Origin: an uncultured Clostridium sp.
GTDB taxonomy: Bacteria; Bacillota_I; Bacilli_A; RF39; UBA660
NCBI GenBank assembly: GCA_947427095.1
Contig: CANEGO010000002.1
Location: 99,810-163,809 of the forward strand
Length of the DNA stretch: 64,000 bases
Reading direction: 5' to 3'
The translations under genes and the position numbers were made by a program. How positions within the stretch are numbered: position 1 is the stretch's first letter; the number at the start of each line of letters is the position of its first letter. The notes under the pieces are model-generated. The model worked only from the letters and a program-made list of their open reading frames with translations, was not told the origin of the DNA and ran no database searches. This document shows, piece by piece, positions 26,883 to 47,429 of this stretch.

Positions 26883-27071
26883 ATGTTCAAATTTTTATTG
26901 AAAGTATTGAAAAAAGTAGTTATAGGAATGGTTTTGTTATTTGGTTATAATACGTTTTTATCATCTCTTAATTTGATGATTCCGATAAACGTTGTAACTA
27001 TAGTTGTAGCAAGTCTTTTTGATGTTCCAGGTATAATTGGACTAGCATTATTTCTCCTTTTTAACTACTAA
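26883..27071 (+). CDS. bofA: Pro-sigma-K processing inhibitor BofA-like small membrane protein (start trimmed to MFKF.. after an AGAGGTGAAG RBS)
   Basis: LMIPINVVTIVVASLFDVPGIIGLALFLL resembles B. subtilis BofA IHVPINLVTTAISGILGIPGIAALVVI. The recR-bofA synteny matches Bacillus. Confidence 0.65.
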   Translation: MFKFLLKVLKKVVIGMVLLFGYNTFLSSLNLMIPINVVTIVVASLFDVPGIIGLALFLLFNY

Positions 27072-30074: not shown

Positions 30075-33000
30075 ATGGGTGATAAAATGCTTAAAAACAT
30101 TTTTAAAAATAAATTTATATATGATAATAATCCGGTGACTGTCTCAGGTTTATGTAAGGGGGTCCAAGCAACATATGTTTGGAATCTTTTTAATGTTACA
30201 AAAGATAACCTTTTAATCGTTACCAATACTTTATATGAAGCAAATAATTTATATAAATCCCTTTCTTTTTATGGAATTAATAATATTTTGTTGTTTCCTA
30301 TGGATGATTTTATTGTTAGTGAAGTTCTTGCAATTTCCCCGGATTTAATGGCAAAGAGAATAGAAACCTTAAATGAATTAACTTTTACAAAAGAAAAAAA
30401 AATAGTTATAACTAATCTTATGGGTTATTTAAGGTTTTTACCTTCAAAATCATTGTGGGAAGCATCATATGTAACACTTAATGAAAATGATATAGTGAAC
30501 CGTGATCTGTTAATAAAAAAATTATCTAAAATTGGATATAGTAAAGAAAGTGTAGTAACTAAAACTGGAGAATTTGCCAATCGGGGTTATATTTTAGATA
30601 TTTTTCCTTATGGTTGTGATAATCCGGTGAGGATTGAGTTTTTTGATAATGAAATAGATGATATTAGAGAGTTTGATCCTTCTAGTCAGTTATCTATTAC
30701 GAAGAAAGATAATATTAAAATAATGCCATTTACTGAGTTTATAAATGAAAAAGAAATAGATGATATTCCTAGCCGACAAAGTTTACTACCAAGGGTAATA
30801 AATGACGTATCATCTTTATCAGAATATGTTTCAGCTGGAGTTCAGGTTTTTATAGATTTAGACGTGTTAACTTTGTCATATTCTAAAATTATGGAAGAAG
30901 TAGTTGAATTTAAAGAAAGTGATACTTTTATAATTGATAAATATATGCATGATTTAAAAGCGCTTGTTCCAAGTAAATATATAAATATTTTATCTGTTGA
31001 TAATTATAATAAAAATATGGTTAGTGTTGAGAATTATGTTTCATCCGAGATAGAAAAATTTAATGGTAATTATAATAGAATTGGTCTTTTTTTAGCCGAT
31101 ATGTTAAGGAAAAACAAAAAGATTATTGTTTATTTAGAAGAAAGTGAATTGATATCTGATTTTATAAGTAGAATTAATCTTAAAACAATATTAGTTCCAG
31201 AAACTGATATAAAAGATAATATAATAAACGTTGTAAAAAAGAATATTCCTAATGGATTTATATTTGATGAATATGTGTTTTTATCTAAAAATGAGCTTTA
31301 TAAAGCTAATACTCTTTCTGGTTATCGCAGCAAATTTAGATATGGTTCTAAAATAAAAGATGTGGATAAATTAAAACCAGGTGATTATGTAGTTCATGCA
31401 TCACATGGTATTGGACGTTATATGGGAATTGTTACTTTGACTGTAAAAGGTTTAAAAAAAGATTTTCTTAACCTAGCTTATTCTGGTGCAGATAAGCTAT
31501 ATATTCCTGTAGAAAAAATAGAGTACATAAGTAAATATTCTTCTAATGAAGGAGTTAAACCAAAATTAAATAAACTTGGTGGTACAGAATGGGTAAAACA
31601 AAAGGCAAGGGTAAAAGGTAGGGTTAAAGATATTGCAAAGGAATTATTAGAAACCTCTGCAAAAAGAAAGCTATCAAAAGGGTTTCAATTTTTAGAAGAT
31701 GATGAGGAACAACTTGTTTTTGAAAATAAGTTTGGTTATGATGAAACTCCTGATCAAATAAGGGCAATAAGAGAAATAAAAGAGGATATGCAAATGCCGT
31801 ATCCAATGGATAGGTTGCTTTGTGGAGATGTTGGTTATGGCAAAACGGAGGTAGCTTTTAGAGCAATTTTTAAAGCTATAAAATCTGGTAAACAAGCCTG
31901 CTTTTTATGCCCTACAACAATTTTATCAAAACAACATTATGATAATGCCGTGTCTAGATTTGATAACTTTGGTATGAACATAGCAGTATTAAATAGATTT
32001 GTTACTCCAAAGAAGAAAATAGATATATTAAATGATTTGAAAACAGGAAAAACCGATTTAATAATAGGAACTCATAGCTTATTAAGCAAGGATGTAAAAT
32101 ATAAGGATTTAGGTCTTTTAGTAATAGATGAAGAGCAAAGATTTGGGGTTTCTCACAAGGAAAAAATAAAAGAATATAAAGAGAATATTGATGTCCTAAC
32201 ACTTTCTGCAACACCAATTCCAAGAACCTTGCAAATGTCTTTAACTGGTGTTAGAGGTTTATCTTTAATTGAAACACCACCGGCTTTTAGATATCCAATA
32301 CAAACTTATGTGCTAAGGGAAAATGATCAAGTAATAAAAGATGCTATTTATAAAGAGTTATCACGTGATGGTCAAATTTTCTTTCTTTACAATAACGTAT
32401 CAAAGATAGAAGATCAGGTAGTAAGAATCAAAAAATTAGTACCAGAAGCGATGATTACGTATATTCATGGTCAAATGAATAGAGGTCAAATCGAAAAAAC
32501 AATGGAAAGTTTTATTAATAAGGAATATAATATTTTGGTTTGCACTACCATTATAGAAACAGGAATAGATATAGAAAATGCCAATACTTTAATTGTTTTA
32601 GACGCTGATCATTTTGGGCTTAGTCAACTATATCAAATAAGAGGTAGAATAGGTCGTAGTAAAAATATAGCATATGCGTATTTAATGTATAATAAAGCTA
32701 AAGAATTAAATGATGTGGCTTTGAAAAGATTAGAAGCGATAAAAGAATTTACCGAATTAGGAAGTGGTTACGCGTTAGCGGTAAGAGACCTTTCAATTCG
32801 TGGAGCTGGAGATATTTTGGGATCTGAACAGTCTGGATTTATTGATACAGTTGGTTACGATATGTATTTAAAAATTTTAAACGAAGAAGTAGAACGCTTA
32901 AAAGGTAATGGGTATGATGAAAAAGATGATTCAACATTAGATGAAAAGTCATTTATAAATGTTGCAACTCATATAAGTGATAAATATGCTGATACCGAAG

Positions 33001-33383
33001 ATTTAAAAATAGAAATCCATAAGAAAATAAACATGATCAATGATTATAATAGTTTTGTTAAAGTAAAAGATGAACTTACTGATCGTTTTGGGTCTTTAGA
33101 TAAAGATATAATAATATACATGTTAGAAGAATTATTTGAAGTTAAAGCAAAAGAAAAAGGTGTATTTAAAGTTGAACAACAGACTAATAAAATAATCATA
33201 TATTTTGACAAAATAATTTCGAAAAGACAAAATGGAGCTAATCTTTTGGCTGGTTTGTTTAAAATAAGTTCCAATTTTGAGGTTAAATATATAAATGATA
33301 TTTTAAAAATAACACTAAATACAAGAAATCTTGAAGATCACTTTCTTTATTATTTAATAAAAATGCTTGATGTTATTGAATAA
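30075..33383 (+). CDS. mfd: Transcription-repair coupling factor Mfd
   Basis: 1102 aa with UvrB-homology, RNAP-interaction and DEAD/helicase domains (DEEQRFGV, TATPIPRTL), and a TRG motif region. Confidence 0.95.
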   Translation: MGDKMLKNIFKNKFIYDNNPVTVSGLCKGVQATYVWNLFNVTKDNLLIVTNTLYEANNLYKSLSFYGINNILLFPMDDFIVSEVLAISPDLMAKRIETLNELTFTKEKKIVITNLMGYLRFLPSKSLWEASYVTLNENDIVNRDLLIKKLSKIGYSKESVVTKTGEFANRGYILDIFPYGCDNPVRIEFFDNEIDDIREFDPSSQLSITKKDNIKIMPFTEFINEKEIDDIPSRQSLLPRVINDVSSLSEYVSAGVQVFIDLDVLTLSYSKIMEEVVEFKESDTFIIDKYMHDLKALVPSKYINILSVDNYNKNMVSVENYVSSEIEKFNGNYNRIGLFLADMLRKNKKIIVYLEESELISDFISRINLKTILVPETDIKDNIINVVKKNIPNGFIFDEYVFLSKNELYKANTLSGYRSKFRYGSKIKDVDKLKPGDYVVHASHGIGRYMGIVTLTVKGLKKDFLNLAYSGADKLYIPVEKIEYISKYSSNEGVKPKLNKLGGTEWVKQKARVKGRVKDIAKELLETSAKRKLSKGFQFLEDDEEQLVFENKFGYDETPDQIRAIREIKEDMQMPYPMDRLLCGDVGYGKTEVAFRAIFKAIKSGKQACFLCPTTILSKQHYDNAVSRFDNFGMNIAVLNRFVTPKKKIDILNDLKTGKTDLIIGTHSLLSKDVKYKDLGLLVIDEEQRFGVSHKEKIKEYKENIDVLTLSATPIPRTLQMSLTGVRGLSLIETPPAFRYPIQTYVLRENDQVIKDAIYKELSRDGQIFFLYNNVSKIEDQVVRIKKLVPEAMITYIHGQMNRGQIEKTMESFINKEYNILVCTTIIETGIDIENANTLIVLDADHFGLSQLYQIRGRIGRSKNIAYAYLMYNKAKELNDVALKRLEAIKEFTELGSGYALAVRDLSIRGAGDILGSEQSGFIDTVGYDMYLKILNEEVERLKGNGYDEKDDSTLDEKSFINVATHISDKYADTEDLKIEIHKKINMINDYNSFVKVKDELTDRFGSLDKDIIIYMLEELFEVKAKEKGVFKVEQQTNKIIIYFDKIISKRQNGANLLAGLFKISSNFEVKYINDILKITLNTRNLEDHFLYYLIKMLDVIE

Positions 33384-33426
33384 AATTGGTAGTTTTATAC
33401 ATTCTAAAAAGGAAGGGAAGAATTGT

Positions 33427-33924
33427 ATGAAAACTACGGGAATAACAAGAAGAATAGATGAATTAGGACGAATTGTAATACCAAAGGAATTAAGAAAAAA
33501 TATGCATATTAAAACAGGGGAATTATTAGAGATTTTTTTAAGCGACACAGAAACTATTTCTCTTAGAAAACATATAACAATAGATAAAAAATAGGAATTT
33601 TTAAACACATATATTAAAATTTTAGCAAATAAGATAAATACTAATGTTTTTGTTGCTAATTTAGATGAAATAGTTTTTTCAAATGTAACTGAAATGATAA
33701 ATATGAAACTCTCACTAGAGTTTGAAAATAACGCTTTTAGTAATATCGGAAAAAATTTAGTTCTTACAAAAGGTTATGAATTAAAAAAATCGCATGAGGT
33801 TTTTCCTATTTCTCCTAATGGGGATTTAGTTGGGTATTTGGTTTTGGAGGACTTAAATTCTAAAAATCAAGAGTTAATCAAGTTTTCTCTTATGTTTTTA
33901 GAAAGTTATTTTGAAACAATTTAA
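33427..33924 (+). pseudogene. spoVT: spoVT (AbrB-N/SpoVT with a GAF-like C-domain) interrupted by a single in-frame TAG at 33592-33594
   Basis: The N-terminal part, MKTTGITRRIDELGRIVIPKELRKNMHIKTGELLEIF, is an AbrB/SpoVT swapped-hairpin domain. After the TAG the same frame continues open for 110 codons (EFLNTYIKILANKINTNVFVANLDEIVFSN...ISPNGDLVGYLVL). This aligns gap-free with B. subtilis SpoVT (DFAKEYADALYDSLGHSVLICDRDVYIAVSG...IVANGDPIGAVVI). Confidence 0.6.
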
Positions 33925-34053: not shown

Positions 34054-34236
34054 ATGCACCATAACGCTTTAACGGATGATAAAAGAAGTTTTGCGTTTAA
34101 GATTGTATTTTTCTTGGTTTTACTATCTTTTATAGCTCTTATGTATTTAGAAAGTGGACTATTAAAAGATGCGTTTTATTTTGCTGTCGTACTAATATTA
34201 TTTATAAAATTTTTAATAATTAAATTATACCGATAA
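34054..34236 (+). CDS. Small two-TM membrane protein (60 aa), hypothetical
   Basis: ORF with hydrophobic helices and a GGAAG RBS. Weak support. Confidence 0.3.
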   Translation: MHHNALTDDKRSFAFKIVFFLVLLSFIALMYLESGLLKDAFYFAVVLILFIKFLIIKLYR

Positions 34237-34265
34237 TATGGTATAATTTTTTTTGGTGATTTATA

Positions 34266-35757: not shown

Positions 35758-36576
35758 ATGAGTGTTAAAGATATTTTAAATAAAAATGGATTTATTTTTA
35801 AGAAAAAGTTTGGTCAAAACTTTTTGCTTGATAATAATATTTTAAATAATATTGCTGATTTAGGTAATATAACAAAAGATACTCTTGTTATAGAGGTTGG
35901 CGTAGGAGCAGCTGCTTTAACTAAAAAATTAAGCCTTAAAGCAAAGCTAGTATTGGGTTATGAGATAGATATAAATTTGAAAAAACCGCTTGATGAAATA
36001 CTTACGGGCTATGAAAATGTTAATATAATTTATGATGACTTTTTGAATCGTGACGTAAAAAAAGATTTAAGTAAGTATGAATACAAAAACATTATAGTAG
36101 TCGCAAATCTTCCGTATTATATAACGACTCCAATAATAACTAAATTTATTGAAGAAAAAATAAACGTAGAAAAGATAGTAGTTATGGTGCAAAACGAGGT
36201 GGCTGACCGATTTTGTGCAAAAACTGGAACTAAATCATATAACTCTTTAACTATTTTTTTGAATTATTATTTTGATATTAAAAAGGCTTTTACCGTTTCA
36301 AGAAATGTATTTTATCCAAAACCAAACGTTGATTCTGCTGTTGTAGTTTTTACAAAAAAAGAGAAAAAATTAAAGTTAAATGATGAAGCCTATTTCTTTA
36401 GACTTGTAAAAGCAGCATTTACTCAAAAAAGAAAAACTTTGAAAAATAACTTATCAGACTACGACTTAGATAAAATTAATGAGGTATTAAAAATATCAGG
36501 TAAAGATATAACTAAAAGAGCAGAATGTATTACAATAGAAGAATTTGCTAAAATTTCAAACGAATTAACCAGATGA
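35758..36576 (+). CDS. rsmA: 16S rRNA (adenine1518/1519-N6)-dimethyltransferase RsmA/KsgA
   Basis: The ATG is preceded by AAGAGGAG; the track ORF starts upstream at a TTG. Motifs FGQNFL and ..VVANLPYYITTPII... Confidence 0.9.
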   Translation: MSVKDILNKNGFIFKKKFGQNFLLDNNILNNIADLGNITKDTLVIEVGVGAAALTKKLSLKAKLVLGYEIDINLKKPLDEILTGYENVNIIYDDFLNRDVKKDLSKYEYKNIIVVANLPYYITTPIITKFIEEKINVEKIVVMVQNEVADRFCAKTGTKSYNSLTIFLNYYFDIKKAFTVSRNVFYPKPNVDSAVVVFTKKEKKLKLNDEAYFFRLVKAAFTQKRKTLKNNLSDYDLDKINEVLKISGKDITKRAECITIEEFAKISNELTR

Positions 36577-36617
36577 TAGAATGTCTGGTTTTTTCTTTGC
36601 ATATATTTTATTGGGTG

Positions 36618-37370
36618 ATGATATTGTTTAAAGTAGGAGATTTAGTCACTAGGATATCACATGATAATGATGTTGTATTTAAGATAGAAAAAATTGATTC
36701 AGGAATTGCTTATTTGAAGGGTGTAAATGTAAGACTGTGCGCCGATAGCAGTGTAAGTGACCTAATTTTGGTTGATTCAAAGAATAATGAAGAAGACCGA
36801 ATATTTTACGAAAAATTAGAGACGATAAGGAATTTTGAAAGAAGTGATTATTTTTATATTCCTGGTAAAATTCTACATGTGGATGGGGATAGAGAATATT
36901 TAAATAGGTGTTTAGATTTTTATAAAAAAGCTAATGTTTTGGCTTTTGGAGTTTACTCACCGGAAAGTGAAATGGCACAAAATATCGAAAAGTATTTAGA
37001 TGATATTAACCCTGATATTGTTGTTATAACTGGTCATGATTCGGAAATAAAAAAGAACTCAAAGTATTTTTCAGAAGCTGTAAAGGCTTGCCGTAAGTAC
37101 CAAAGGGATTATGATAAATTAATAATAATTGCTGGTGCTTGTCAATCGGATTATGAACACCTTATAAAAGCGGGAGCCAATTTCGCGTCAAGCCCAAAGA
37201 GGATAAACATTCATGCGCTTGATCCTGCAATTATTGCTTTATCCCTAAGTCTGTCTGATAAAAATAAAAATGTTGATTTACTAGCGCTTTTAGAAAAAAC
37301 GAGCAACGGTAAGGACGGTATTGGTGGTGTTAATACAAGGGGTGTTATGACTACCGGGTATCCTAGGTAA
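36618..37370 (+). CDS. yabG: Sporulation-specific protease YabG
   Basis: PGKILHVDGD, IVVITGHD and IIAGACQSDYEHLIKAGANFASSPKRINIHALDP align closely with B. subtilis YabG. The position between ksgA and veg is conserved. The start was chosen at MILFKVGDLV; the track ORF begins at 36573. Confidence 0.75.
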   Translation: MILFKVGDLVTRISHDNDVVFKIEKIDSGIAYLKGVNVRLCADSSVSDLILVDSKNNEEDRIFYEKLETIRNFERSDYFYIPGKILHVDGDREYLNRCLDFYKKANVLAFGVYSPESEMAQNIEKYLDDINPDIVVITGHDSEIKKNSKYFSEAVKACRKYQRDYDKLIIIAGACQSDYEHLIKAGANFASSPKRINIHALDPAIIALSLSLSDKNKNVDLLALLEKTSNGKDGIGGVNTRGVMTTGYPR

Positions 37371-37586: not shown

Positions 37587-37675
37587 TATATGAACTTTTT
37601 TATTTGTGTTTATTGATTTTTATCCCCATTTGTGGTTAAATTAAAATGTATAAACTAAAATGGGAGGACTATACT

Positions 37676-40600
37676 ATGAACATGGCAAAGTCGAATATTA
37701 AAAGCAGATTAAGTGATTGGTTTCTTATTCAGAGAATTAGAATAACTAATTTTATGAAGGAACATAAGTATGTTTCGGCGTTTATTGGTGTTTTTTTAAT
37801 GTCTTCCTTAATTGCTTTCATAGTTTACGCGGTTGATGCAAACAAGTATGATGGTCAGGTTTCAGTTACGGCTAAAGTTGAGCAAAAAAACGTATCTTCA
37901 AGCGAGGAAATTACACATATTAAAAGCTTTAGCAACATCATATATGATATATCATATGGATTATCAATATCAGACTTACCTGCCAACGAAACGGTTGTAA
38001 GGGAAAAAGTAATAATTGAAGCAGAATTTAACGAAGGTATTGATGCTGAATGGATATTCCAGGACGAGGATGCAACTTATGAATTGTCAGAAGATAAAAG
38101 AAAGTTAACGGTAACTATTTATCAAACTAAGGTTGGGGAACTTAACAGCAAGCAATTGTATTTAAAAGCAAAAAATATACAAAATGGAACAGTTATAAAT
38201 ACGAATATTAGAATAAAGGAATCTACCGCCGCAGATTTTACTGATTTAGGTCAAAAAAGTGTAGTAATAGAAAGTGAAAAAGTTGATTTAACTACTAAAA
38301 TAATATCTGGCACAGCTTATAAATCTTCTGACTATCAAGAAGGACGATTAGCTCCTTTTGGTATATTAGTTGGATTTGATAAAAGTAATCTTAAAACAGA
38401 GAATAAAGATAGTTTAGAGGGGCTTTATTTTGATCCTAATTTGAGTTTAATATTAGAAGCAACTCAGACTGTAAATGGAGTTAATTCTCAAATAGAATTA
38501 AAAAATGATAGTAATAAATTTTTTGGATTATATGATAAAGGATCTAATTTATTGCCATTGATGCCACATCATATAAATAATTATCAATATTATTCAGTAT
38601 ATAATTCCGGTAAGGTTACAAACTTAATCAAGTCAAAAAGTGGGGTTTCCGGTGTTGTTACTGAAAATAAAAATCCAGATTTATATTTAATAGGTGATAA
38701 AACCATGAATTTAGAGCTTGGAGAAAAATACGAAGAATATGGTGTGTCAACAACAAATGGTGGTTCAGCTATTTGCAAAACAAGCAGTTCTTCCTGCACC
38801 CGTGTTATAAAAGATAAAGATGGAAATGAAATCGCTGATAATGACGTTACCAAATCGGTTGGTAATTATATTGTTAGCTATGAATATAATACGGCAAGTG
38901 GTGTTACTAAGGTTAACAGAAATATCAAAGTTGCTGAAAAAACAACGGCTACTTTAAATGATGATGTGTATGAACTAAACGGTAATAAAATCATTACTTT
39001 AGTAAAAGGTACAGCTTATTCTGAAAGTGGAATAATAAAAAATGGTGCTAAATATTATAATTATGAAAGTATCATAACAAAAGATGGAGATGTTATTGAA
39101 AAAATAGACGCAACCATAGTTGGTACCTATGTAATAACTTATAAAATTACTGATGCTACTAGTCAGACGCCAGAAACTGGTGAAGAGACCCTGGCAGAGG
39201 AATCTACCATTAAAGAAGTTTCGTTAACAAGGACGGTTAAAGTAGTTGAAGGCTTGGAGTATTTGAAAGCACAAACGATTACTTCCAGCACTATTTATGC
39301 TCCGTCAGATGGTTCATTTACTAACCCTTTAATAAATCTTGATGGCAAGGATATAGAATGTACAAGCGATAGTGGATGTGAGGTTAAATATTATGATCCA
39401 ATTAGTAAAAAAGAAACAACTATTGATAAACAAAAAGCTGGAACATATAATGCTATATATAAAATAACCGATAAAAATGGATTTGAACTACAAACGGGAA
39501 ATGTTATTAATATTCAAACTAAATATGATTTTAATATAGAGGGAATAAAATCTGATGGAACTATTAATTTATATGGAGACGATTTTGTTGCATTAGGTTC
39601 TTATTTTGTAAATGCGGCATCTCCTAGAGCTCTTGAAGCAAGTGGTGATATTGCAGTTAATCTAAGAATTGGTGATGTAGTATCAGAAAATGTTATTAAT
39701 AAAGTTTATTCGGCAGGAACGAAAACTAATCATTTAACATTTAATACCGATACCTCTGGAATGTTAACAGAGTTGCCAAATGACACTTATTTAGCTTATG
39801 GTGAAGAAGTTATTTTAAGATCGGTATTTAATTATTCTAGTGATGGCGATGATAATATTGGAACTTTAACAACTAGGATTCCGATTGGTACGGCTGTTTC
39901 ATCAGCAAATAATCCGACCGCTCCGTTTACTATGGTTGAGTATAATAATAGTGTGGAGAATGGTGAACCCTATTACGTAAATGAGGAATTAAAAGATAAA
40001 GTAAAAGTTAGCTATTATGCATGTGAAATGGAAGAATCTAAGACAACCTGTATTAGTGAAACCGGAGCAACTTATGAAACTTTTGATACATTAAATGACG
40101 CTTTGAAGAAAAATGATAAATTAAGATTAGCTTATTTAACATACGTGGTTAATGACGTAAGACCTGGCTCTGAAATTGATTTTAGGATTAGATTAGTTGC
40201 TAACGTTGGAAATCATGATGGAGTACTTACAATGACATCAACATCTACATTTGATGAAAAGCAAGAAAATGGAACTAGTCAAAGTAAAAATATATCTGAT
40301 AATAGTACTATAAACGTTACCGCGTTTAAGGCAAGGACTAAAGTGTTTATTGGTAATAGTGAACAAGACGTCATAATAAATGCCGCTAATGTAAATAGCT
40401 CAACGTGGACTATTTATCCGACAATAAGTTTACCAGCAGAGTTAGTAAATACTAATATAGCGGCTATAGATGAACTTTCTAATATTACAATCGTTGTTAC
40501 TTTGCCTGATGGAATTAATTATTTATATAATGAAAATTATGATATTCCTTCAGTAAGTAATAATGGCAAAACCCTAACTTATGTTTTAAAGGGGAAACAC

Positions 40601-42250
40601 GTTAATGAGTGGATTGATCCGATAACGTTTGAGGCTAGTTATGATATAGATATTCCTTCTGGAACAAGAAAGGAAGTTAACGTTTTAATACAAGCAACGT
40701 CAACCAGTGGAATATCTGATGCATCTAGTAAAAACTTAAGAACAACAACGAGAGCAGTGACATATCAAAATAACGAAGTAATAACATATGCACAGTATAC
40801 TCCATATACAGCAATATCTAAAGAGACAAGTTTTAATGTAAGCACTAAATTATACAATAATGATAGTAAAGAAGTAACGCATTCAAATTTAGATATTGTA
40901 ACGCTACTTCCGTATAATGATGTAAGTAACGAAAAAAATAAATATACAGGCACATATACTATATCTAATTTACCTAAGGGAGCTTTATGTACAACTAGTA
41001 TTCCATCCGTAATAAGTGACTCTAAAAAACTTTTATCTGGTGATGAAATAACATGGGAAGATTGTTCTAAATATCAATCTGAGAACTATGTTGGCATTAC
41101 GGCCATTAGGGTTAATGGTATAAGTCTTGCTGCTAGAAAAACTTATGAACAAAGTATAACAATTAATCCAATAGGTAATAAAACAGATGATTCATATCAA
41201 ATTAATTCGTATTTAATCATGGATTCTGATGGTAAAAGGATTGTAAAAAATATTAAAGCTTTAAATATTGATGTTATTAGTAAAAGAATAACTGGTACGG
41301 TTTGGGAAGACTTTGACGCCAACGGTATTATGGATGCACAAGAAAAAAAGGTGTCAGGGGTTACTTTAAAATTATACAATGCGGAAACTGACGAACTTGT
41401 AAAAACTACTACTTCTGATGAAAAGGGTAAATATAGTTTATCTGATTTGATTCCGGGCACCTATTATGTAGTGGCAGAGTATAATACGGCAAAATATGGT
41501 TTATCACCATATCAAGTAACACTAGATAAATCTGTTAGTTCCTCGTTTAATGCAACTAAGGTTAACGAAGATAATATTGACTCTAAAAATAGTAATACAA
41601 AAGATGATATAGTATCTTCCGAATCGACAAAAGAAGATGTAGAATGCACTGGTGATGAGTGTACAGATCTTGACCCCTCTGATAAACTGGAAGAAACTCA
41701 GCCTGTTATTAGGACCGAAAATATAGAAATAAATAGTAATACTAGAATGGTTAGTAATGTTAATCTTGGTCTTGCACTTAGAAAGACATATTCTGTTAAA
41801 TTGACAAAGTATGTAACAAAGGCAATTACGACTAATAATCTTGGTGTATCAACAATAAAAGATTATGGTAATGTTTCTTTGGCAAAATTGGACGTAAAGG
41901 ATATAAATAATTTAGGTATTAAGGTTGTTTATACTTTAGAATTAGAAAATACTGGTTATTATCCTGGTTATATTTATTCTGTGAAGGATTATATTCCAGA
42001 TGGGATGAAGTTTAATGAAAATTATGAAGAAAATAAAGGTTGGGTAATGACTGAATATGGTTATTTGGAAAATAACACTTTATTTGATCAGTTGGTTGCT
42101 GGGGGAGAAAAGAAATATCTTACAGTCGCCTTTGATATCGTAAGAAAAGAAGCTGGCTCTTTTGTTAACTATGCGGCAGTGGATGATGAAGATTTACAAA
42201 TTTTAGTTGTTGCTGGAAATGAAGGAGAAGAAGGTGATAGTAATGAATAA
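37676..42250 (+). CDS. Giant N-terminally membrane-anchored surface protein (about 1525 aa) with a C-terminal CnaB/SdrD-B-type domain and a DUF11 domain
   Basis: Start set at the ATG 8 nt after GGGAGG; the track starts at 37646. A TM helix (VSAFIGVFLMSSLIAFIVYAV) follows a short cytoplasmic tail. ITGTVWEDFDANGIMDAQEKKVSGVTLKLYNAETDELVKTTTSDEKGKYSLSDLIPGTYYV is a classic CnaB/SdrD B repeat. The terminal VVYTLELENTGYYPGYIYSVKDYIPDGMKF is DUF11-like. There is no C-terminal sorting signal. Confidence 0.7.
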   Translation: MNMAKSNIKSRLSDWFLIQRIRITNFMKEHKYVSAFIGVFLMSSLIAFIVYAVDANKYDGQVSVTAKVEQKNVSSSEEITHIKSFSNIIYDISYGLSISDLPANETVVREKVIIEAEFNEGIDAEWIFQDEDATYELSEDKRKLTVTIYQTKVGELNSKQLYLKAKNIQNGTVINTNIRIKESTAADFTDLGQKSVVIESEKVDLTTKIISGTAYKSSDYQEGRLAPFGILVGFDKSNLKTENKDSLEGLYFDPNLSLILEATQTVNGVNSQIELKNDSNKFFGLYDKGSNLLPLMPHHINNYQYYSVYNSGKVTNLIKSKSGVSGVVTENKNPDLYLIGDKTMNLELGEKYEEYGVSTTNGGSAICKTSSSSCTRVIKDKDGNEIADNDVTKSVGNYIVSYEYNTASGVTKVNRNIKVAEKTTATLNDDVYELNGNKIITLVKGTAYSESGIIKNGAKYYNYESIITKDGDVIEKIDATIVGTYVITYKITDATSQTPETGEETLAEESTIKEVSLTRTVKVVEGLEYLKAQTITSSTIYAPSDGSFTNPLINLDGKDIECTSDSGCEVKYYDPISKKETTIDKQKAGTYNAIYKITDKNGFELQTGNVINIQTKYDFNIEGIKSDGTINLYGDDFVALGSYFVNAASPRALEASGDIAVNLRIGDVVSENVINKVYSAGTKTNHLTFNTDTSGMLTELPNDTYLAYGEEVILRSVFNYSSDGDDNIGTLTTRIPIGTAVSSANNPTAPFTMVEYNNSVENGEPYYVNEELKDKVKVSYYACEMEESKTTCISETGATYETFDTLNDALKKNDKLRLAYLTYVVNDVRPGSEIDFRIRLVANVGNHDGVLTMTSTSTFDEKQENGTSQSKNISDNSTINVTAFKARTKVFIGNSEQDVIINAANVNSSTWTIYPTISLPAELVNTNIAAIDELSNITIVVTLPDGINYLYNENYDIPSVSNNGKTLTYVLKGKHVNEWIDPITFEASYDIDIPSGTRKEVNVLIQATSTSGISDASSKNLRTTTRAVTYQNNEVITYAQYTPYTAISKETSFNVSTKLYNNDSKEVTHSNLDIVTLLPYNDVSNEKNKYTGTYTISNLPKGALCTTSIPSVISDSKKLLSGDEITWEDCSKYQSENYVGITAIRVNGISLAARKTYEQSITINPIGNKTDDSYQINSYLIMDSDGKRIVKNIKALNIDVISKRITGTVWEDFDANGIMDAQEKKVSGVTLKLYNAETDELVKTTTSDEKGKYSLSDLIPGTYYVVAEYNTAKYGLSPYQVTLDKSVSSSFNATKVNEDNIDSKNSNTKDDIVSSESTKEDVECTGDECTDLDPSDKLEETQPVIRTENIEINSNTRMVSNVNLGLALRKTYSVKLTKYVTKAITTNNLGVSTIKDYGNVSLAKLDVKDINNLGIKVVYTLELENTGYYPGYIYSVKDYIPDGMKFNENYEENKGWVMTEYGYLENNTLFDQLVAGGEKKYLTVAFDIVRKEAGSFVNYAAVDDEDLQILVVAGNEGEEGDSNE

Positions 42251-44372
42251 AAAAGTTAAAAATATTATATTAGTTATTCTTCTTTCCATTACTACCTTCT
42301 TTAGCTTTAACAACATTTTATTTGCTAAAACAGGGCAAATACACCCTCATAGTAATACGAATTATAAAAATGCAGTATATCGAATGAATGGTGTTAATAA
42401 AGATAAGAACATAGGTTGGGTTGGAATTTATAATATAAATGGGCAACATGCTTATTGTATAGAATTAGGAACACCTCTATCTCCTGGGTATGATCCTAAT
42501 AATAACGTTGATTTTAACGATTATTCATATGGTTTTTTCAAGAATTTAAGTGCCTCAGAACGAGCTGCTAGAAGTACTAGAATCGCTTATATATTAACGT
42601 TTGCTGAAAATATTGGTACTGTTCCGGCAGAGAGTGCCATGAATAAAACTCAAGCGTTAAGAATTTATGCTGCTCAAGGTTTAATTTGGGAAACTATGAC
42701 TGGGGAGAGAACTTCTTTTAATAATTTGTGGCCAGAAAATCATCAGGGAACGGCTTGTAGTTTTTACGATGTTGTTCATAGCAGAAATGGTTGTAATAAG
42801 GGTAATGATATGAGCGTGATCTCCCAAGAGTATGATCGTATTGTAAAAGCAATCCAATCTACGTTTTTAGATAGTAATCCGGGGGAATCTGGTAAAACTT
42901 TTAAACCAGGTGGTAGTGAAAACAAAGTGGCTCTTTCTTGGGATGGTTCAAAATATACTTTAAGAATTAATGATTATAATTTTTCGTATTGGGAAGTAAT
43001 CAAAACCGATGGTCTTCAAGTAGAAAAAGGTTCAAATTATATTACTATTTCAAGTAAAAATCCAATTGATGAAAATGCTGCAAAGCAGGTTGGTATTCAG
43101 ATTATTAATAAAAATAATAGTTCTAATATCGCGAAGGCATATTATCATGATAGTTTGCAAGATCTTACTACTATTGTAGGTACTACATTACAAAGATATA
43201 TTAAGGTATACACACCAAAATATCAGTTAAAAATCACTAAAAAAGCTTCTTTAGATGGAAAGGTTTTAAGTGGAGCAAAATTCAATATTTGTTCAAATAG
43301 TTCCTGTACAAAAATATTAGGTACGGTAACAACGGATAAAAATGGAACTGCAACATTTCAAAGTATCCCATCACCAGGTACTTATTATGTAAAGGAAATA
43401 GTTGCTCCGCCGGGGTATGAACTTGATTCAACACCACGTGCCGTTACTGTTTCATCTTCTAGTATCGCGGGATCATCAAGTTATGGGGTGATAACTTTAA
43501 CTGATGCGAATAAAGTATTTAACTTAACAAAAAAGACAGTTGATGAAAATGGAAACGTTATTGATTTAGATGATGGATGTGGAACAGATAATTATACTGG
43601 TCCAGAATTTGAGATTAAAGAAAACGGAAGTAGTCTTTATTTTAAAGAAATAAAACCAGGTGAATATGATGTTTCAAGTAAGGATGCTGATGGTGCAACA
43701 ACAAAGCTTAGAACTTGCAAAGGAAAATTCAAAGTTTATACTTTGCCAAAGTGTAATTACACCATATCGGAAACTAAAGCTCCAGAAGGACTTACTTTGC
43801 CATCCGAACCAACAAAAGCAATTAACGTTTGTGGTTCTGGGAAAAACGTATCATTTACCAATGGATTTGCAGGTTTAGAATTTCAAAAAAAAGATGAGGA
43901 TGGTAACTTTGTAGAAGGAGGAAAATTTTCTCTCCAAAGAAGGGTAAATAATGTTTATCGTGATATTTTACTAAAACAAGTAGAAGATGGTAGTTATGTT
44001 TACGATGCTAATCTAAAAGAAGAAGACGAAGGAGCTACTTATATAATTCTTACTAATAAAGGTATAGCACGCATTTCAAAATTAGCACCTGGTGAATACA
44101 GGGTGGTAGAAAAAGAGGCTCCAGAAGGATTTGAACTTATTCAAGATAAGGATTCCAAATCTTTAGTTACCATAAAAGATAGTGATAAAGAAGGATATTA
44201 TTTAGTAGAAATGATTGACCAAAAGGTTAGGAAAAATGGAAGTAAATCCTCCGCTGAACTTGTAGTTACGATCACAACTGGTAGAAAGGTTCCAAATTAT
44301 ATACTTATTATTTCTGCTTTAGTTATTATGCTTGTAATAGCTATATTGATAAGAAAAAAAATAAAAAAATAG
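42243..44372 (+). CDS. Secreted adhesin/pilin-like protein (about 709 aa) with a possible thioester-type N-domain, two SpaA-like prealbumin-fold domains, and a C-terminal TM helix with a KR-tail cell-wall-anchor-like signal
   Basis: The ATG overlaps the upstream stop (ATGAATAA), with a GAAGGAG RBS. Signal peptide MNKKVKNIILVILLSITTFFSFNNILFA. YCIELGTP and AAQGLIWE resemble the Cys and TQxA(I/V)W Gln motifs of thioester domains. GTYYVKEIVAPPGYELDSTPRAVTV and KLAPGEYRVVEKEAPEGFELIQ are SpaA-like. The C-terminus is ..VVTITTGRKVPNYILIISALVIMLVIAILIRKKIKK. Confidence 0.65.
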   Translation: MNKKVKNIILVILLSITTFFSFNNILFAKTGQIHPHSNTNYKNAVYRMNGVNKDKNIGWVGIYNINGQHAYCIELGTPLSPGYDPNNNVDFNDYSYGFFKNLSASERAARSTRIAYILTFAENIGTVPAESAMNKTQALRIYAAQGLIWETMTGERTSFNNLWPENHQGTACSFYDVVHSRNGCNKGNDMSVISQEYDRIVKAIQSTFLDSNPGESGKTFKPGGSENKVALSWDGSKYTLRINDYNFSYWEVIKTDGLQVEKGSNYITISSKNPIDENAAKQVGIQIINKNNSSNIAKAYYHDSLQDLTTIVGTTLQRYIKVYTPKYQLKITKKASLDGKVLSGAKFNICSNSSCTKILGTVTTDKNGTATFQSIPSPGTYYVKEIVAPPGYELDSTPRAVTVSSSSIAGSSSYGVITLTDANKVFNLTKKTVDENGNVIDLDDGCGTDNYTGPEFEIKENGSSLYFKEIKPGEYDVSSKDADGATTKLRTCKGKFKVYTLPKCNYTISETKAPEGLTLPSEPTKAINVCGSGKNVSFTNGFAGLEFQKKDEDGNFVEGGKFSLQRRVNNVYRDILLKQVEDGSYVYDANLKEEDEGATYIILTNKGIARISKLAPGEYRVVEKEAPEGFELIQDKDSKSLVTIKDSDKEGYYLVEMIDQKVRKNGSKSSAELVVTITTGRKVPNYILIISALVIMLVIAILIRKKIKK

Positions 44373-44445: not shown

Positions 44446-44703
44446 ATGGAAATAACTAGTGTGTCAGTTCAAAAAGAAACTAAGGAAAATTCCAGAATGA
44501 TAGGTTATGCAGAAATAGTTTTTGACGATTGCCTAAAGGTTAATGGAATTAGAATAATAAGGGGAAACTCAAAAATTTTTGCGGCCATGCCAAATAAAAA
44601 GTTACAAGACGGGAAATATAAAGACTATGTTCATCCAATTAATGCCGAACTAAGAAAGAAAATAGATGATGCGATTGAGGAAGCCTATAACAAGGCAGAA
44701 TAA
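44446..44703 (+). CDS. spoVG: Septation/sporulation protein SpoVG
   Basis: MEITSVSVQKETKENSRMIGYAEIVFDDCLKVNGIRII... is the canonical SpoVG sequence. Confidence 0.9.
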   Translation: MEITSVSVQKETKENSRMIGYAEIVFDDCLKVNGIRIIRGNSKIFAAMPNKKLQDGKYKDYVHPINAELRKKIDDAIEEAYNKAE

Positions 44704-44754
44704 TATGCTATCATATTTTTCTTTTTTTTTAATATAATTTATCAGGAGGTAGTT

Positions 44755-45045
44755 ATGGATAAAGATGTTGATAAAATGGAGTTAATAAATCATAACATTA
44801 CGATAACACAGAGGCAAAACGTAACAATTAGTGGCATAACTAAAATAGAGAGTTTTGATAGCGAAGAATTCCTTCTTGATACAAGTTCTGGCCCTCTTGG
44901 AATCAAGGGAAAAGAACTTGAAATAGTAAAATTAGATACCTATGATGGCACGATTGTTATTAAAGGTATTATAGATGGCTTTTCATATCTAGATGCGGGT
45001 AAAAATAAAAAAGAGGATTCAGTAATATCGAGGTTGTTTAAGTAA
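44755..45045 (+). CDS. yabP: Sporulation protein YabP
   Basis: ..HNITITQRQNVTISGITKIESFDSEEFLLDTSSGPLGIKGKELEI.. matches the YabP family. Conserved yabP-yabQ-divIC order. Confidence 0.8.
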   Translation: MDKDVDKMELINHNITITQRQNVTISGITKIESFDSEEFLLDTSSGPLGIKGKELEIVKLDTYDGTIVIKGIIDGFSYLDAGKNKKEDSVISRLFK

Positions 45046-45317
45046 TGAATTTGGAAACCCAATTTAAAGTCATTTTTTATTCGTTTGTGTACGGAATGTT
45101 TTTTATTGCAACTTTTAAAGGATTAAAAATAATAACACTTAAAAAGAATTTTTTTAAAGTGTTATTAGAATTATTATTCTGCTTTTTTCATGCTATTACC
45201 TTTTATTTTTTGTTATATAGGATAGATTATGGGATTCTTAGTTATTATATTATTGTATTTGTAATACTTGGAGGAATCTTTTGTCAATTACTTTACTTTA
45301 AAGACAAAAATACCTAG
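45045..45317 (+). CDS. yabQ: Spore cortex biosynthesis protein YabQ-like small membrane protein
   Basis: Small 3-TM protein whose start overlaps the yabP stop, in the syntenic position. Confidence 0.55.
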   Translation: MNLETQFKVIFYSFVYGMFFIATFKGLKIITLKKNFFKVLLELLFCFFHAITFYFLLYRIDYGILSYYIIVFVILGGIFCQLLYFKDKNT

Positions 45318-45367
45318 AAAAAAACTTTTTTTCATTATATAATATACTATATAATGGAGATGGTATA

Positions 45368-45658
45368 ATGAGTAACAAATTAACTGCAAAAGAACGAAGA
45401 AGAATTGTGTTAACTTCAATATTTTGCTTTTTTATAATAACCTTATCGATTATATCATCCATTGGTAATGTTTTTAAAATAGGAGAAAAAACTAAGGAGA
45501 AAAAACAATTAACGGTTCAGTTAGAAACACTTGCGGAAGAAGAAAAAATACTTTCTGATGACGTAGAAAAGTTAAAAAATCCTGAATATGCCGCAAGGTA
45601 TGCCAGGGAAAAATATTTATATTCTAAGACCGGAGAAAAAATATTAAAAATAGATTAG
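45368..45658 (+). CDS. divIC: Septum-formation initiator DivIC/FtsB family protein
   Basis: Basic N-terminus, one TM helix, then a coiled coil (..LTVQLETLAEEEKILSDDVEKLKNPEY..). Syntenic with Bacillus divIC. Confidence 0.7.
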   Translation: MSNKLTAKERRRIVLTSIFCFFIITLSIISSIGNVFKIGEKTKEKKQLTVQLETLAEEEKILSDDVEKLKNPEYAARYAREKYLYSKTGEKILKID

Positions 45659-46814: not shown

Positions 46815-47429
46815 ATGAAAAAGCAATATGAGGACGATTTTGAATTGTTATATATGATTTCTGATAGTAATGAGCAAGCAAGCGAAACTATATTTAAGAA
46901 ATACGAAGCTGTTATTGAATATTATGCAAAAAGGTATTCTCCATTTGTTGAGGGGAAGGGAATAGATTATAATGATTTATATCAAGAGGGATTGATAGGA
47001 CTTGATTCGGCAATTAAAGGTTATAAGGATCAAAAGGACATAAAATTCTCTACTTTTGCATTTATATGTATTAAAAGGAAGATAATAACAGCAGTTAAGC
47101 AAGCAAATCGAAAAAAACATAGTATATTAAATGAATCTTATTCCATAGACTATCATAATGATGATGATAAGAATGGTTTTGGAAACGTGGTTTATAATAA
47201 TGATGGTGGAATTGAAGATTTATTAGTGAGTAAAGAAAATACAGAAACCTTTAATAAAAGACTTAGTGAGGAGTTAACACCTTTTGAAAAACAAGTATAT
47301 GAATTAAGATTGTATGGATTTAACTATGATGAGATATCTAAAAACTTAGGTAAAACCACAAAATCGATTGAAAGTGCTTTATTTAGGATAAGAATAAAGT
47401 TGAAAAATATATTAAATGAAATAAATTGA
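46815..47429 (+). CDS. sigH: RNA polymerase sigma factor SigH
   Basis: DLYQEGLIGLDSAIKGYKDQKDIKFSTFAFICIKRKIITAVKQANRKKH aligns with B. subtilis SigH DIVQEGMIGLYKSIRDFKEDKLTSFKAFAELCITRQIITAIKTATRQKH. Region 4 is at the C-terminus. Confidence 0.85.
   Translation: MKKQYEDDFELLYMISDSNEQASETIFKKYEAVIEYYAKRYSPFVEGKGIDYNDLYQEGLIGLDSAIKGYKDQKDIKFSTFAFICIKRKIITAVKQANRKKHSILNESYSIDYHNDDDKNGFGNVVYNNDGGIEDLLVSKENTETFNKRLSEELTPFEKQVYELRLYGFNYDEISKNLGKTTKSIESALFRIRIKLKNILNEIN

Follow-up and report, generated by a model that had tools for sequence, protein, structure and literature searches.

The closest described systems for the gene analyzed here are SpoVT, a regulator of late sporulation, and its paralogue AbrB. 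SpoVT has been reported to require tetramerization for DNA binding (PMC5061766). The isolated N-terminal domain of AbrB (AbrBN) forms a stable dimer whose DNA binding in vitro is noncooperative (PMC4022651), and the same paper, citing Yao & Strauch 2005, states that truncated AbrBN gives no repression in vivo and that AbrBN fused to the SpoVT C-domain represses. Mutants lacking spoVT have been described in several spore formers: the Bacillus subtilis mutant has a defective coat, altered germination, and UV sensitivity, the B. cereus mutant is blocked in sporulation (both PMC5061766), and the C. difficile mutant forms phase-dark, heat-sensitive immature spores (PMC3789822). Some spore formers, such as E. 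ramosum, have no spoVT at all (bioRxiv 10.1101/2022.02.25.481979). The promoters recognized by sigma-F and by sigma-G, both of them sigma factors of the forespore, are alike (PMC3789822). Loss of sporulation has occurred repeatedly among gut Firmicutes (PMC8340488), and the order RF39 is predicted to hold both sporulating and nonsporulating members (PMC10868615).

The DNA analyzed here (the window, 64 kb in total) comes from the part of a 29%-GC Bacilli chromosome next to the origin and includes dnaA, gyrBA, rpoBC, and others; the RpoB encoded there shares 93% identity with the protein of Candidatus Aphodocola excrementigallinarum. Candidatus Aphodocola corresponds to GTDB CAG-594, of the family CAG-433 in the order RF39 (PMC8035907). 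The organism is an uncultured gut bacterium of the class Bacilli, near Candidatus Aphodocola (order RF39), and the source is presumably a metagenome-assembled genome.

Directly downstream of mfd, on the forward strand, an ATG at 33427 opens a reading frame that, as read from the sequence and the list of open reading frames (ORFs), has 55 sense codons and then a TAG at 33592-33594. Past the TAG, the same frame stays open for 109 sense codons (110 with the stop) until a TAA at 33922-33924. The probability of 109 open codons arising by chance is about 1e-4 by our own calculation, which takes about 8% of random codons as stops at 29% GC. This confirms the layout given in a preliminary description of the DNA, in which a spoVT frame was said to be broken by one in-frame TAG. 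The features of the locus are the following:

30075..33383, + strand: mfd, conserved upstream neighbor and synteny marker for spoVT (ORF of 1,102 amino acids; domains taken from the identical protein in relatives)
33377..33406, + strand: sigma-G/sigma-F-like promoter candidate TGAATA-N17-CATTCTA (only match in the 64-kb window; conserved)
33410..33420, + strand: ribosome-binding site AGGAAGGGAAG (read directly from the sequence; kept in relatives)
33427..33591, + strand: translated part of 55 codons, AbrB/SpoVT-type swapped-hairpin DNA-binding domain (matches to PF04014, TIGR01439, and 2ro5)
33592..33594, + strand: amber codon TAG, E56* via G>T at 33592 (GAG in conspecifics, GAT in the sister species)
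33595..33924, + strand: predicted untranslated remnant, 109 codons of a GAF-like C-terminal domain plus the original TAA (open frame; equals the intact allele in contig L017)

The 498-nt gene aligns without gaps to 22 relatives, so the lesion is a substitution, and the proposal that it is a point nonsense change rather than a frameshift is borne out. A frameshift or slippage event at the A6 run before the stop was also considered and is irrelevant, since the downstream frame is the same frame.

The promoter candidate, TGAATA-N17-CATTCTA, is close to the consensus of B. subtilis sigma-G promoters and thus resembles a forespore promoter of the sigma-G type. Its −35 element overlaps the mfd stop codon, and it ends 20 nucleotides 5′ of the spoVT ATG. 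It is the sole match to TGAATA-N17/18-CATNNTA on both strands of the window, with 0.31 matches expected, and it is kept in relatives whose proteins are 65 to 91% identical. These observations suggest that spoVT lies behind a forespore-type promoter, which we treat as a candidate.

The assignment of the gene to spoVT draws on several lines of evidence. When the two parts are joined across the stop, the protein matches the NCBIfam model TIGR02851 (spore_V_T) over residues 2 to 139 with 74 bits, and the N-terminal part alone gives 53 bits. The equivalog cutoff of this model is 235.9 bits; the joined sequence lies far below it, which points to a diverged orthologue, placed in the family by its profile, fold, synteny, and promoter. 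The N-terminal part carries an AbrB/MazE-type domain (Pfam PF04014, E = 8e-8; TIGR01439, 43.3 bits with a cutoff of 28.3). Taken alone, the C-terminal part encoded in the window stays under the Pfam SpoVT_C threshold (13.5 versus 27.5 bits, E = 0.079), and several homologues have a precomputed match to PF15714. A database search returned hundreds of unbroken homologues of 162 to 172 residues, the nearest being 91% identical. A family profile was built from 24 of the uninterrupted homologues and searched against the PDB; it matched B. subtilis SpoVT (2w1t) over positions 1-161/1-172 with E = 1.7e-28, the crystallized C-domain construct 2w1r with E = 0.002, and the 55-residue N-domain NMR construct 2ro5 with E = 1.6e-18. 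The homologue with 91% identity, P0001, was modeled with AlphaFold (AF2; pLDDT 87), and the top PDB match of the model was 2w1t_A, with a TM score of 0.79, followed by the SpoVT C-domain 2w1r and CodY GAF domains. The position of mfd (30075-33383) directly before spoVT (33427) is kept in relatives, and the Mfd protein identical to that of the window carries the Pfam domains CarD_TRCF_RID, DEAD, Helicase_C, and TRCF in these relatives. Profile, predicted structure, synteny, and promoter thus point to a diverged spoVT orthologue, and the spoVT identity proposed in the preliminary description is upheld by the profile, the predicted fold, and the synteny with mfd. The gap-free alignment with the SpoVT C-domain that was reported there holds for the first ∼30 residues of that domain, whereas the full alignment with the B. 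subtilis protein needs three gaps.

Conspecific contigs were retrieved via exact copies of the neighboring genes, giving 19 distinct contigs from 19 sequencing runs with 99.1 to 99.8% nucleotide identity to the window over 2 to 21 kb. Codon 56 is GAG (Glu) in all 19 and TAG in the window. A comparison with related strains had been named beforehand as a check, and it returned the sense codon GAG in every other conspecific strain. In seven contigs that span the full 498-nt gene, the G>T at 33592 is the sole difference, and both domains lie on one unbroken polypeptide in 19/19 conspecific contigs and in all listed homologues, unlike in the window. A sister species (∼89 to 90% nucleotide identity) reads GAT (Asp) at this codon, and the residue at position 56 is D, E, Q, A, or G in farther homologues. 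The stop is therefore a single G>T transversion, GAG to TAG (E56*), seen only in the present genome. A scan of one genome per species yielded three relatives with 77%, 65%, and 36% identity (rabbit-gut and other “uncultured Bacilli” metagenome-assembled genomes). Two pattern scans that left the codon open as NNN gave no match of any kind in the JGI metagenome contigs.

Apart from the stop, the coding sequence of the window is identical to the intact conspecific allele in L017. Since the 109 downstream codons equal those of intact alleles, the nonsense event is recent. For the C-domain, comparison with the sister species gives a dN/dS ratio of 0.155, and comparison with a more distant species gives 0.204, values that show purifying selection between species and a GAF domain that is functional in the lineage; with no differences from L017, the remnant has had no time to decay. 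The history of the codon is thus a conservative Asp/Glu difference (GAT/GAG) and, later, one G>T transversion.

An in-frame stop with an open frame behind it might also be decoded, by a suppressor tRNA, by recoding of the pyrrolysine type, or by context-dependent readthrough, so that full-length SpoVT would still be made. The perfectly intact downstream frame would fit such decoding, but it is explained simply by a recent mutation, and the use of stops in the window speaks against it. The 50 large ORFs end in TAA (37), TAG (10), or TGA (3), and ORFs tile the window when it is read with table 11, the standard code, which rules out an alternative code or a reassignment of TAG; in the window, TAG is an ordinary stop. 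The 64 kb contain no tRNA gene and hence no suppressor tRNA, the only Rfam matches being the signal recognition particle (SRP) RNA and an L10 leader. The in-frame stop is also not conserved: the 19 conspecific contigs, the sister species, and all aligned homologues have a sense codon, and there is no sign of programmed recoding. We therefore regard a decoded amber codon as a most remote prospect. Stop-codon readthrough and a natural split of the gene had both been among the options first listed, and neither is supported, as the stop is absent from every relative. No split spoVT occurs in any relative (19 conspecific contigs and other homologues), and past the stop the frame offers no start codon until an ATG at 33694 (codon 90) that has no ribosome-binding site or Shine-Dalgarno sequence. 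Reinitiation that would yield a separate GAF domain is ruled out on the same grounds, with no start before codon 90 and no ribosome-binding site.

Private SNPs were counted where at least five distinct conspecific contigs overlap the window, a span of 20.8 kb (26570-47370). There were 11 (∼5e-4 per bp), comprising 8 synonymous, 2 missense, and 1 nonsense (E56*). If ∼25% of random errors are assumed to be synonymous, 8 synonymous changes out of 10 have an estimated binomial p of ∼1e-3. There were no private indels relative to the conspecific contigs, and no other ORF in the 64 kb is broken. By this estimate, the great majority of the private differences reflect true divergence of the strain under purifying selection, and the assembly looks clean.

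The main rival to a real mutation is an error of sequencing, consensus, or assembly, in which case the organism has GAG and position 33592 was wrongly called as T, possibly through oxidative G>T damage or because the metagenome assembly had low coverage there. Library damage classically produces G>T artefacts. The T is present in one assembly only and in none of the 19 other conspecific contigs; the exact split-gene products of 55, 74, and 76 residues are not on record in the assembly collection, no disruptive change other than E56* affects a conserved gene, and, among private variants, a nonsense change where purifying selection acts is a priori the kind most likely to be an error. Weighing against an error, the other 10 private SNPs (8 synonymous and 2 missense) indicate a low error rate and favor a real allele over a consensus error, neither private indels nor further broken ORFs accompany the stop, and a density of ∼5e-4 private SNPs per bp leaves ample room for one real nonsense change. 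We consider a base error unlikely, and we put the probability that E56* is a real loss-of-function allele of spoVT, a strain-private knockout, at roughly 70%; a real allele under any of the readings that accept the base is at least as probable. Of the explanations that had been offered at the outset, a genuine, strain-specific knockout is thus the best supported, and an assembly artefact is its chief competitor, while natural split and readthrough fall away. The source appears to be a contig of an uncultured organism, and the base may stand for a mixed or minority population and not for a genotype that is fixed.

In the alignment, the SpoVT C-domain construct 2w1r begins at residue 56, in the interdomain linker, and the 55-residue product covers the same residues as the NMR construct 2ro5. 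The stop therefore cuts cleanly at the linker, in agreement with the preliminary description, which had placed it between the AbrB-type and GAF-like domains. Translation would end after 55 residues, leaving the 109 codons of the GAF domain untranslated and undecayed. The fragment would be expected to fold as a swapped-hairpin dimer and, without tetramer assembly through the C-terminal domain, to regulate improperly. As the C-terminal domain is needed for the active tetramer in SpoVT and AbrB, the allele is, by this analogy, most likely null or severely hypomorphic. A strain carrying it would be predicted to misregulate late sigma-G-dependent forespore genes and to form defective spores or no mature spores.

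The clean cut also lends itself to the reading that E56* is a real but non-null allele whose 55-residue, stand-alone AbrB-type domain, still produced in the forespore by way of the sigma-G-type promoter, serves as a small DNA-binding regulator with altered activity independent of the GAF domain, a neofunctional natural split. The stop coincides with the domain boundary, the product matches in extent the 2ro5 domain, which folds independently, the promoter candidate and ribosome-binding site are intact, and AbrB's N-domain, when isolated, forms a stable dimer and binds its target DNA in vitro (PMC4022651). This is nonetheless very improbable: the allele occurs in one genome only and shows no conservation, AbrBN alone reportedly gives no repression in vivo and SpoVT is reported to need tetramerization (PMC4022651, PMC5061766), purifying selection acts on the C-domain in the lineage, and the second half, with no start codon or ribosome-binding site, is not separately expressible. 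A related idea, which we find improbable, is that the TAG is real and a first step of sporulation loss, but that the sigma-G-driven 55-residue domain still binds SpoVT targets and would rewire late forespore expression rather than abolish it.

Intact yabG, spoVG, yabP, yabQ, and divIC genes and a gene for a sigH-like sigma factor are present in the window. Together with an intact bofA, called in the 99.6%-identical contig L028, these genes lie at 26883-27071, 36573-37370, 44446-45658, and 46815-47429. Their retention is consistent with the predicted sporulation capacity of part of RF39, and spore formation by the present lineage is a prediction.

Other variation within the species was seen around the locus. 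After ksgA (∼36593 on), two conspecific contigs (SRR10090025 and SRR10445544) diverge from the window: a 169-amino-acid ORF replaces the yabG-veg-surface-protein genes (L018:5329-6753 and L020:5271-5518), L018 adds a His_Phos_1/AraC_binding gene, and L020 ends inside the first ORF. This difference is a within-species structural variant at a sporulation-protease locus. Two very large surface proteins with SpaA, SdrD_B, and Ig-like domains are encoded at 37646-42250 and 42207-44372; they are polymorphic in length, with 1,534 and 721 amino acids in the window and 1,524 and 709 to 711 amino acids in conspecific contigs, and the first carries one of the private missense changes, G805E. The other is K31T in the spore-cortex gene yabQ (45136, codon 31). 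Between spoVT and tatD, a 60-codon membrane-like ORF (34054-34236) has an identical sequence in at least 12 contigs; it has no Pfam family match and is called by gene callers in some assemblies only. An intergenic T/− homopolymer polymorphism at 34247 is shared by the window with a minority of the conspecific contigs. Mfd is called with 1,102 amino acids in some conspecific contigs and 1,098 in others, a start-site or N-terminal polymorphism.

An event of this kind, in a gene family of this kind, is well known, and one strain-private nonsense allele, or possibly a base error, carries small weight alone. For annotation, pipelines should mark the gene as a pseudogene or with an “internal stop.” For the lineage, which is RF39-like and was formerly placed with the wall-less Mollicutes, the locus shows that a SpoVT orthologue under selection is kept together with a candidate forespore-type promoter and neighboring sporulation genes. 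If the allele is real, knockout alleles of sporulation genes would segregate within species as the raw material for repeated loss of sporulation, and E56* could plausibly be where the loss begins that is seen again and again in gut Firmicutes and in RF39. Given that sporulation has been lost repeatedly in gut Firmicutes, a segregating knockout of a late sporulation regulator would be unsurprising.

Compared with the known systems, the gene shares with B. subtilis SpoVT the AbrB-type swapped-hairpin N-domain and GAF C-domain, the full-length profile match (E = 1.7e-28) and a family model with a TM score of 0.79 to 2w1t_A, a sigma-G-type promoter (a candidate here), and, with Bacillus, the position of spoVT immediately downstream of mfd. 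It differs in its highly diverged C-domain, with an overall identity of ∼25 to 27%, in its length (165 residues versus 178 in B. subtilis), and in belonging to an uncultured RF39-like lineage, in the present genome of which it is cut at residue 56. With AbrBN, the fragment has in common a swapped-hairpin domain of ∼53 to 55 residues without a multimerization domain; AbrBN is a laboratory construct of the paralogue AbrB, whereas the fragment encoded in the window is a predicted product. By analogy with mutants of B. subtilis, B. cereus, and C. difficile that lack spoVT, the full-length forespore regulator is expected to be lost; those mutants are engineered deletions or insertions, whereas the change here is a natural nonsense mutation that leaves the DNA-binding domain expressible. 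Finally, the locus shares with the erosion of sporulation genes in gut Firmicutes and in RF39/RFN20/ML615J-28 a lineage with repeated loss (PMC8340488, PMC10868615), of which a fresh nonsense change could be a first step; in contrast to lineage-wide loss of sporulation, it is a single strain-level mutation among intact neighboring sporulation genes.
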